Of a stretch of DNA of 64,000 bases, positions 16,981 to 17,944 are shown piece by piece. Origin of the DNA: an uncultured Gemmatimonadota bacterium (GTDB taxonomy: Bacteria; Latescibacterota; UBA2968; UBA8231); assembly GCA_903893785.1 (NCBI GenBank), contig CAITNQ010000344.1:3451-67450 (forward strand), read 5' to 3'. The stretch's first letter is position 1; every line of letters starts with the position of its first letter. Under the pieces are notes generated by a model. It saw only the letters and a list, made by a program, of their open reading frames with translations. It was not told the DNA's origin and did not search any database. The position numbers were made by a program, and so were the translations under genes.

Positions 16981-17075
16981 GCCAGGCTCATCCAACCACG
17001 CGGCGGCGTCGCCGCCACGCCTGGGCGCCCAGCGCCAGCATCGCGGCCCCCAACAGCAACTGGCCGGTGGGGCCG
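16981..17075 (-). repeat. Near-identical 95-nt block (copy 1) covering the 3' end of ubiquitin gene A plus 7 nt past its stop
   Basis: Aligned by eye with 17536-17630. The first 78 nt are identical and 93/95 overall, whereas the ubiquitin-core codons differ extensively. Confidence 0.85.
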
Positions 17076-17392
17076 ACCGCCGGGATGGCGCTGGTGACCA
17101 CCAGGTTCACGGTGCTTTCATGTCGGATGTTGTAGTCTCCCAGGGTGCGACCGTCCTCCAGTTGCTGGCCGGCGTAGATGAGCCGCTGCTCCTCCGGCGG
17201 GAAGCTCTCCTTGTCCTGTATCTTGGCCTTTACCTGGTCGATGGTGTCGTTGGGCTCCACCTCCAAGGTGATGGTCCTGCTGTTGAGGATCTTGACGAAG
17301 ATCTGCATGGCGGGTGCCGGGGCACTCCACACCATCAGGAGTGTCGTCAGGAGCAGGACCCGCGGACCCATGCCATTCGGCGTTACGCTCAT
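16988..17392 (-). CDS. Exported ubiquitin homologue A: signal peptide + ubiquitin core (17093-17308) + C-terminal sorting-type tail
   Basis: ORF 16988..17392. Protein: [28 protein letters not shown] | [72 protein letters not shown] | [34 protein letters not shown]. 52/72 core residues are identical to eukaryotic ubiquitin (hand count). Confidence 0.9.
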
Positions 17393-17535
17393 CGGTTACC
17401 TGCAGTTGGTTTGGGGACAGGAGGATCGGCGCGCCCCGCGCCGGCTGGCGGCCGGCACGCGGCACGCTGTGGGGCGTTGGTTCGGTATGTTGCCCCAACC
17501 GCTCCGCCACCGGAACACCGGGGCCGTCGGCGGCT

Positions 17536-17630
17536 GCCAGGCTCATCCAACCACGCGGCGGCGTCGCCGCCACGCCTGGGCGCCCAGCGCCAGCATCGCG
17601 GCCCCCAACAGCACCTGGCCGGTGGGGCCA
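17536..17630 (-). repeat. Near-identical 95-nt block (copy 2) covering the 3' end of ubiquitin gene B plus 7 nt past its stop
   Basis: See 16981-17075; the offset is 555 nt. Confidence 0.85.
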
Positions 17631-17944
17631 ACGCCCGGGACGGGTGTGCGGAGCACCAGGTGGAGCGTGCTTTCCTTCTGGATGTTGTAGTCGCTGAGCG
17701 TGCGCCCGTCCTCCAACGTTTGGCCCGCGAAGACCAGGCGCTGCTCGTCGGGCGGGATTCCCTCTTTGTCCTGGATCTTGGCCTTGACGTTCTCGATCGA
17801 GTCAGAGGGTTCCACGTCCAGGGTAATCGTCTTGCCGGTCAGCGTCTTGACGAAGATCTGCATCGCCACGGCCGGCCCCGTGGCGAGCAGCAGGGCGGCC
17901 AAGGCCAGCGCCAAGGGCGCTGCGTTCCGGTTCTGGATCATCAT
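17543..17944 (-). CDS. Exported ubiquitin homologue B: signal peptide + ubiquitin core (17648-17863) + C-terminal sorting-type tail
   Basis: ORF 17543..17944. Protein: [27 protein letters not shown] | [72 protein letters not shown] | [34 protein letters not shown]. 66/72 core residues are identical to eukaryotic ubiquitin (hand count). Confidence 0.93.

Follow-up and report, generated by a model that had tools for sequence, protein, structure and literature searches.

Why should a bacterium encode ubiquitin, a cytosolic protein of eukaryotes, behind an export signal? The question is raised by two tandem genes, here called A and B, on contig CAITNQ010000344.1 of an uncultured Gemmatimonadota bacterium (GenBank assembly GCA_903893785.1, positions 3,451 to 67,450; Latescibacterota, UBA2968, UBA8231 in GTDB); this whole stretch of 64,000 nucleotides (nt) is referred to as the window. 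In a preliminary description the pair had been read as exported ubiquitins of near-eukaryotic sequence on the minus strand, and that reading is borne out by the open reading frames (ORFs), by the Pfam family PF00240 and by solved ubiquitin structures. Whereas eukaryotic ubiquitin is cytosolic and carries LRGG at residues 73-76, the products of A and B are predicted to be exported and have these four residues replaced. The answer put forward here, which is probably right without being secure, is that A and B are paralogues encoding a eukaryote-derived ubiquitin domain that is not conjugated but exported and anchored, being held at or sorted to the cell surface.

Each gene is a single minus-strand ORF with three parts, followed by a stop codon. 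Gene B (17543..17944; 133 aa) consists of: (i) a signal peptide of 27 aa (17864..17944); (ii) a ubiquitin core corresponding to residues 1-72 (17648..17863); and (iii) a C-terminal sorting-type tail (17546..17647). Gene A (16988..17392; 134 aa) has the same plan, with a signal peptide of 28 aa (17309..17392) whose sequence is unrelated to that of B, a more diverged core, again residues 1-72 (17093..17308), and a tail of 34 residues (16991..17092). Both N-terminal extensions contain a basic residue, a hydrophobic stretch of 11-14 residues, and small residues at positions -1 and -3, with ..TGPAVA in B and ..SAPAPA in A running straight into MQIFVK. The junction of an A-x-A site with Met1, on which the preliminary description had placed weight, is thus present in both sequences. 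These features point to type I signal peptides, and cleavage, predicted after AVA in B and after APA in A, would expose Met1 of ubiquitin as the mature N-terminus.

The profile search proposed in the same description places both proteins in PF00240, well above the cutoff of 25.4 bits (B, 102.6 bits, E=1e-29; A, 94.8 bits, E=2.6e-27), and solved ubiquitin structures are matched by both at ~1e-40 per domain. The core of B is identical to human ubiquitin at 66/72 positions and differs at 6/72 (E16D, T22S, Q40E, I44V, K48Q, and Q49T), while that of A is identical at 52/72 and carries 20/72 substitutions, including K11R, K48Q, K63H, and H68N. The alignment reproduces exactly what had been counted by hand, down to the same six substitutions in B. 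Lys6, 11, 27, 29, 33, and 63 are retained in B, K48 is a glutamine in both copies, and the Leu8/Ile44/His68/Val70 patch of B is altered only by the conservative replacement of Ile44 with valine; A is without K63 and H68. The Gly-Gly end is missing, as residues 73-76 are TPVP in B and SAIP in A and run on into the tail, and the mature part of neither protein contains a cysteine. A single-sequence AlphaFold model of B, of low confidence (mean predicted local distance difference test, pLDDT, 62), has a signal-peptide helix, beta-grasp elements, and a C-terminal helix at residues 107-129.

From position 73 onward, the 34 residues of each tail form a Pro/Gly motif, a hydrophobic stretch of ~15 residues, and a run of arginines (RRRRR). 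In B, the motif is 11 residues long and ends in VGPTGQ, the hydrophobic stretch has 15 residues, and the protein closes with RRRRRVVG, so that the arginine run ends three residues before the stop codon.

On the proposed explanation, the precursors would be exported by way of a Sec-type signal peptide that is cut after A-x-A, and the mature protein would begin at ubiquitin Met1. The Cys-free beta-grasp domain would then fold outside the cytoplasm. The extreme C-terminus has the anatomy of a tripartite sorting signal of the PEP-CTERM/IPTL-CTERM type and, by analogy with PEP-CTERM/exosortase and related signals, would hold the protein N-out in the cytoplasmic membrane, where it would probably be cut by a putative dedicated enzyme and the protein passed to the cell surface. 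There, the domain would most likely serve as a displayed binding surface or a ubiquitin look-alike, not as a covalent modifier. Such a displayed, non-covalent role is the one favoured by the sequence features, and the partner could lie in a grazer or host, as a ubiquitin-binding protein, or in another bacterium. Strict mimicry of eukaryotic ubiquitin would be more plausible for B than for A or for their orthologue P0245 (described below), because B has lost only K48 of the seven lysines and is changed in its patch at I44V only.

P0245 is what ties this architecture to the lineage. A phmmer search of 1.84 billion representative proteins with the 35-residue tail alone returned a single match, P0245, which is itself built of a signal peptide, ubiquitin, and a tail of this kind, TPVPGLGPAGQLVLAAVMLALAAEAWRRRARAPR. 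It lies on a 43-kb Joint Genome Institute (JGI) contig (L164; GC 0.69) whose flanking proteins are mostly 83-97% identical (~90%) to their window counterparts, with order preserved, and its gene stands between an HpcH/HpaI aldolase (window 31170) and an amidohydrolase (window 12906). The database gene call begins at an internal ATG (L164 8650-8680); an in-frame GTG 30 nt upstream yields a proper signal peptide, MKRGTGFLALMLATLMVASGPAAA. The core of P0245 is identical to human ubiquitin at 56/72 positions and is without K11, K29, and K33, and the tail motif TPVPG.GP.GQ is conserved between it and B. In the divergent intergenic region between gene B and the neighboring DUF11 operon (17945..18569), an element of ~40 nt upstream of B (window 17990-18030; GTAGATTGCGCC..GGGCGCCCAACCCACCCC) is conserved upstream of P0245 at L164 ~8600-8650, the shared sequence being GTAGATT[G/A]CGC...GGGCGCC.AA.CCACCCC, and may be a promoter or regulatory site. 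Since the only match to the tail is a ubiquitin with the same tail at a syntenic site, these comparisons indicate that the ubiquitin-plus-tail gene is inherited and kept in this clade.

The same comparison bears on the surroundings of the genes. The 13-kb operon of DUF11 (a domain named CLIPPER in newer Pfam releases, where it is described as an isopeptide-bond domain) occupies window 18570-31055 and includes an ORF of 2402 aa with SdrD_B, DUF11, and invasin domains and, mid-protein, an OmpA domain. The syntenic site (L164 8174-9282) lacks this operon and also the URO-D-like gene and the 546-aa gene that form a pair at window 13855-16757, so that the ubiquitin gene sits in a variable islet between conserved blocks. 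The preliminary description had attached meaning to the DUF11 context, and this did not hold: the closest relative found does not share the adjacency, which therefore argues only weakly for a functional tie; the operon is unsupported as a functional partner.

Within the window, A and B are separated by a spacer of 150 nt (17393..17542, minus strand), in which an uninformative consensus scan found no promoter or convincing terminator. Their cores share 75% DNA identity, codons differing synonymously in 18 cases and non-synonymously in 22, with a synonymous substitution rate (dS) of ~0.85, which marks them by sequence as old paralogues and not as a recent duplication. Of the earlier proposal that a eukaryotic ubiquitin had been acquired, duplicated, and refitted, the eukaryotic type, the export signal, and the sorting-type tail therefore stand, and a recent duplication does not. 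The last ~94 nt of the two genes, comprising the tail and 7 nt past the stop codon (16981..17074 and 17536..17629, minus strand), differ by one base. Tails that are nearly identical beside cores that are only 75% identical indicate gene conversion, and the homogenized blocks are a likely recombination substrate for a single-copy variant seen in two strains that are 99% identical to the window (L081 3266-3667; L083 662-1063). There, the single ubiquitin gene has the B core followed by the downstream flank of A (compare window 16988-17944), a structure that fits either an assembly collapse or a copy-number polymorphism that arose when the matching tails recombined and the stretch between them was deleted.

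The ubiquitin of this lineage is under purifying selection, yet it changes 3-7 times faster than its neighbors. Between B and P0245, the core has a non-synonymous substitution rate (dN) of 0.138, a dS of 0.73, and a dN/dS of 0.19, and the tail a dN/dS of 0.37; for neighboring genes of the window and L164, leaving out one misaligned orthologue pair (a 469-aa ORF), dN is 0.02-0.056, dS 0.44-0.51, and dN/dS 0.05-0.11.

Like IPTL-CTERM and PEP-CTERM domains, the tails of A and B place a motif, a hydrophobic helix, and a basic cluster at the extreme C-terminus of a protein that begins with a signal peptide, and this pairing, which is also how IPTL-CTERM proteins are recognized, is present in both. 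On the other hand, the motif is IPTLSEW in IPTL-CTERM and VGPTGQ here, and the scores against the NCBIfam model TIGR04174 (IPTL_CTERM), 19.3 bits for B, 18.8 for A, and 18.5 for P0245, lie below the curated cutoff of 20.5; being sub-cutoff, the three tails are not filed as members of IPTL-CTERM. The corresponding Pfam model, PF18203, gave no match in A or B at E<=1. One IPTL-CTERM protein has been localized experimentally, the outermost S-layer protein of Methylomirabilis lanthanidiphila (PMC8671808). From the anatomy of the tails and this analogy, we infer that A and B may be sorted to the surface.

The main rival holds that the tail is a plain inner-membrane anchor, that is, a stop-transfer helix that leaves the ubiquitin tethered and acting on the periplasmic face of the cytoplasmic membrane, for instance by binding a periplasmic folding factor, as the Bacteroides fragilis ubiquitin BfUbb binds a periplasmic peptidyl-prolyl isomerase (PPIase). 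This is unlikely, but several observations count for it and against surface sorting. A tail that scores under the IPTL_CTERM cutoff and is not matched by PF18203 could be a plain membrane anchor. No ORF of the 64-kb window other than A and B has such a tail, the search of 1.84 billion representatives gave no other cargo, just another ubiquitin, and no exosortase or other sorting enzyme was found among the scanned window ORFs; such a system, dedicated to sorting, is therefore only putative in this organism. The reported target of BfUbb is itself periplasmic (PMC11467351). The proposed explanation is further strained by the faster change of ubiquitin relative to its neighbors (dN 0.138 against 0.02-0.056) and by the loss of key lysines in A and P0245, which weakens strict mimicry of eukaryotic ubiquitin for these copies. 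Against the plain anchor stand a hydrophobic stretch of just ~15 residues, its position at the extreme C-terminus ahead of an arginine cluster, as is typical of a cleaved sorting signal, the motif TPVPG.GP.GQ that precedes it and is conserved between species, and the bona fide surface anchors carried by relatives in other bacteria. Two further ORFs of the window may be mentioned here: a GAF-domain protein fused to an Rce1-like (CPBP/CAAX) intramembrane protease (53360-54700, minus strand) and a separate ICMT/PEMT-like methyltransferase (10040-10651, plus strand). For some C-terminal signals, CPBP proteases are among the proposed sorting enzymes.

Less probable still is that A and B encode interbacterial toxins, with cleavage at the tail motif freeing a ubiquitin that would kill competing bacteria or hold back their growth. 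Of the bacterial ubiquitins, only BfUbb and its B. ovatus counterpart BoUbb have been studied functionally, and these are secreted antibacterial proteins; both copy-number polymorphism and relatively fast protein evolution, as seen in this clade, are common for competition genes. BfUbb is 63% identical to ubiquitin, has a 28-residue signal sequence and a C-terminal cysteine, and is encoded on a low-GC island (PMC3352274). As a diffusible toxin, it is imported through the SusCD transporter ButCD and targets the periplasmic PPIase (PMC11467351). A and B resemble BfUbb and BoUbb in having a eukaryote-derived ubiquitin with a signal sequence fused at its start, the point of cleavage in the Bacteroides proteins and the predicted one in A and B, and in lacking both Gly-Gly and, in the scanned window, conjugation enzymes (PMC3352274; PMC11467351). 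However, B is 92% identical to human ubiquitin against 63% for BfUbb, which the preliminary description had rightly called the more diverged. BfUbb ends in a cysteine, is free and diffusible, and comes from a low-GC island (PMC3352274), whereas A and B have no cysteine, carry a tail of motif, transmembrane (TM) stretch, and arginines in place of ending as a free 76-residue protein, and have host-like codon usage and composition; in addition, the loci have no conserved neighboring gene that is a candidate for immunity. Because A and B lack the cysteine, bear an anchor, and have a host-like composition, the displayed non-covalent role is favored over one of the BfUbb type.

That A and B might be cytoplasmic modifiers of a conjugation system of the Bil/Bub, SAMP, or Pup type, as the beta-grasp fold of the ubiquitin family might suggest, is contradicted by sequence features and deserves almost no credence, for they have a signal peptide, neither Gly-Gly nor another exposed conjugatable C-terminus, and no E1, E2, or JAB domain in the window or conserved in related loci. 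ThiS/MoaD, SAMPs, and Bil/Bub share the beta-grasp fold with A and B, and Pup does not, but all of these, unlike A and B, are cytoplasmic and far more diverged, have a conjugatable end, and have E1-like genes adjacent. As the preliminary description had observed, no conjugation enzymes lie nearby: none of the scanned window ORFs contains an E1, E2, deubiquitinase (DUB), JAB, or exosortase domain, and no E1, E2, or isopeptidase gene is conserved across at least 60 related loci. The tail takes the place of residues 73-76, Gly-Gly among them, and E1, E2, and DUB genes are missing from the vicinity, so that A and B cannot act as covalent modifiers.

Equally negligible is the chance that the locus is an assembly artefact, in which a fragment of eukaryotic ubiquitin was mis-joined to bacterial DNA. 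Such contamination does occur, as four assemblies labeled bacterial (L045, Hyphobacterium; L046, a Limnohabitans metagenome-assembled genome, or MAG; L077, Pararhizobium haloflavum; and L080, Streptomyces beihaiensis) have short contigs with head-to-tail polyubiquitin or a ubiquitin-L40 fusion that are almost certainly eukaryotic contamination. Here, signal peptide, core, and tail all lie within one ORF. The GC content at third codon positions (GC3) is 0.87 in A and 0.90 in B, resembling the 0.81-0.87 of neighboring genes in a window of ~69% GC. The exact B protein occurs on 9 contigs from at least 6 independent European Nucleotide Archive (ENA) assemblies, with flanking genes alike and one contig, of 7.3 kb, 100% identical to the window, and a diverged orthologue stands at the syntenic position of a related genome. 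The chimera that the preliminary description had wished to exclude thus finds no support, and within the reach of sequence data the artefact is refuted. Elsewhere the window has the usual gene content of a bacterium, encoding PAS histidine kinases, an SDR protein, amidohydrolases, RsgA, glutamate dehydrogenase, a GH127 enzyme, an L,D-transpeptidase, and SpeA, whose best named relatives, at 86% identity, are MAGs of Candidatus Krumholzibacteriia; this places the organism in the candidate phylum Krumholzibacteriota.

The rarity implied by the preliminary description did not survive a wider search. At least 370 loci with close ubiquitin relatives came out of a scan in which each GTDB species was represented by one genome, and the best 80 of them were kept; after removal of the four obvious polyubiquitin contaminants named above, 65 ubiquitin ORFs were left. 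A signal-peptide-like extension with small residues directly before Met1 is present in 55/65. Isolates that carry them on large scaffolds or complete chromosomes include Dyella humi, Limnohabitans sp. DCL3, Paenibacillus sp. FA6, Pseudomonas danubii, Saccharibacillus sacchari, and Paracidovorax valerianellae. Identity to the eukaryotic protein reaches 85-99% in many signal-peptide ubiquitins of bacteria, and the minimal architecture of the window pair recurs in other phyla. Two other searches were less revealing: with full-length B, the matches in a set of 5.8 billion proteins were dominated by eukaryotic polyubiquitins, and a metagenome contig scan with A was dominated by a KAKIQDKE pattern and did not recover the window species or its close relatives.

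All 59 bacterial and archaeal signal-peptide ubiquitins that were aligned match PF00240. Their consensus core differs from human ubiquitin by E16D only, their consensus has AxA directly before MQIFVK, and the seven lysines and the residues of the Leu8/Ile44/His68/Val70 patch are each retained by 83-100% of the sequences, but Gly76 by only 14%; as these proteins are the most similar subset of at least 370 hits, the conservation is biased upward, which tells against reading too much into it. The variable positions are 16, 19, 20, 22, 24, 28, and 57. These are largely the positions at which eukaryotic ubiquitins differ from one another. GC3 of the ubiquitin genes tracks the GC of the host locus over a range of 24%-72% (r=0.92, n=62). 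Between lineages, synonymous sites are saturated, with a median proportion of synonymous differences (pS) of 0.89, NG86 pS values (which may exceed 1 in pairs of very different composition) being taken as evidence of saturation and not as a distance, and the median proportion of non-synonymous differences (pN) is 0.10. The tracking of GC3, together with saturated pS and low pN, indicates that the genes are long-resident and under purifying selection, not fresh contamination.

What follows the ubiquitin varies. Among the 59 proteins, Pfam finds an autotransporter beta-barrel in 10/59 and IPTL-CTERM in 5/59, and single cases of SLH, dockerin, a type IX secretion system (T9SS) sorting tail, DUF11, SdrD_B, fn3, and similar domains; NCBIfam finds IPTL_CTERM in 7 at E<=0.01, a figure that includes the two sub-cutoff tails of the window, and 'choice-of-anchor U' in 4. 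The proteins of Limnohabitans DCL3, Pseudomonas danubii, and Pseudovibrio have no recognized Pfam domain other than ubiquitin N-terminal to the barrel. The Paenibacillus FA6 protein joins ubiquitin to an Ig-like domain and three SLH domains, a 168-aa protein of a Ruminococcus MAG joins it to dockerin, and in two proteins (locus L012 and Paracidovorax L030) it is followed by IPTL-CTERM above the Pfam threshold. The tripartite tail of motif, TM stretch, and basic cluster is present in 14/59, and the minimal version of ~130 aa, with signal peptide, ubiquitin, and tail, is also found in Luminiphilus, Brevundimonas, Kapabacteria, and Nitrosomonas; the Brevundimonas tail (L016) passes the IPTL_CTERM cutoff at 29.0 bits. 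An archaeal protein of ~1,490 aa, from a Methanothrix sp. MAG (L017 806-4405), has a signal peptide, ubiquitin, five SdrD_B repeats, and a DUF11 domain, domain types that match the operon beside the ubiquitin genes of the window and offer a weak 'Rosetta-stone' link. Dyella and Collimonas have bare secreted ubiquitins of up to 75/76 identity, two of three of which (at loci L004, L029, and L039) end in LRGG.

These fusions thus share with A and B the junction of signal peptide and Met1 and the N-terminal position of ubiquitin, but differ in their anchors, which are an autotransporter barrel, SLH, dockerin, or a T9SS tail, and some are bare and end in LRGG. As judged from the domain architectures, what these proteins have in common is that they are exported, that ubiquitin stands at their very N-terminus, and that they usually bear a surface anchor.

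The neighborhoods of these genes say little about function. Clustering of neighbor genes across at least 60 related loci found no conserved neighbor and gives no functional clue by guilt by association. In Dyella and Collimonas, a conserved gene of ~385 aa precedes the bare ubiquitin (L004 8816-9973; L029 4633-5793; L039 8854-9966), with no Pfam match in the two copies scanned (L004 and L029); as the only lineage-conserved neighbor found, it is possibly a partner or immunity gene. As regards vectors, no ubiquitin match was found in a phage collection, and only three plasmid records had one. On the mobilizable 421-kb plasmid pRUMAL01 of Ruminococcus albus 7 (L165 3932-4672), a 'ubiquitin family protein' lies amid hypothetical genes and a dockerin gene.

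RefSeq gives such bacterial genes the name 'ubiquitin family protein', with eukaryotic Gene Ontology (GO) terms attached. In the case of the R. albus plasmid, these terms are 'protein ubiquitination' and 'modification-dependent protein catabolic process', which look like transferred eukaryotic annotation. In the literature, subscription-only papers being outside the coverage, no work was found on exported bacterial ubiquitins beyond BfUbb and BoUbb of Bacteroides, none that combines ubiquitin with IPTL-CTERM, no survey of exported bacterial ubiquitins, and no functional study of the other signal-peptide fusions; an earlier description elsewhere is possible.

Taken across the survey, a bolder reading may be offered, though only tentatively: that bacteria of many phyla and some archaea deliberately coat their surface with near-native ubiquitin, captured repeatedly from eukaryotes and wired in each lineage to its own anchor, be it an autotransporter, an IPTL-CTERM-like tail, SLH, dockerin, or T9SS, with the window pair as the minimal form. 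So far, BfUbb and BoUbb have been the known cases, and both are treated as diffusible toxins. The present locus and its relatives suggest that ubiquitin with an export signal, 85-99% identical to that of eukaryotes, is encoded by numerous bacteria, free-living ones as well as those of rumen and soil, with cultured strains of complete genome among them, and the locus would be one case of a large and apparently unstudied group that seems to display ubiquitin on the surface. Among the carriers, isolates of Limnohabitans, Dyella, Pseudomonas danubii, and Paenibacillus are tractable. If the displayed domain is recognized by eukaryotic ubiquitin-binding machinery, this would amount to widespread molecular mimicry between microbe and protist or microbe and host; if it is not, ubiquitin would have a second, non-conjugative life as an extracellular bacterial module. 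Should the surface-coating reading be true, it would represent a general and undescribed strategy for dealing with eukaryotic grazers or hosts.

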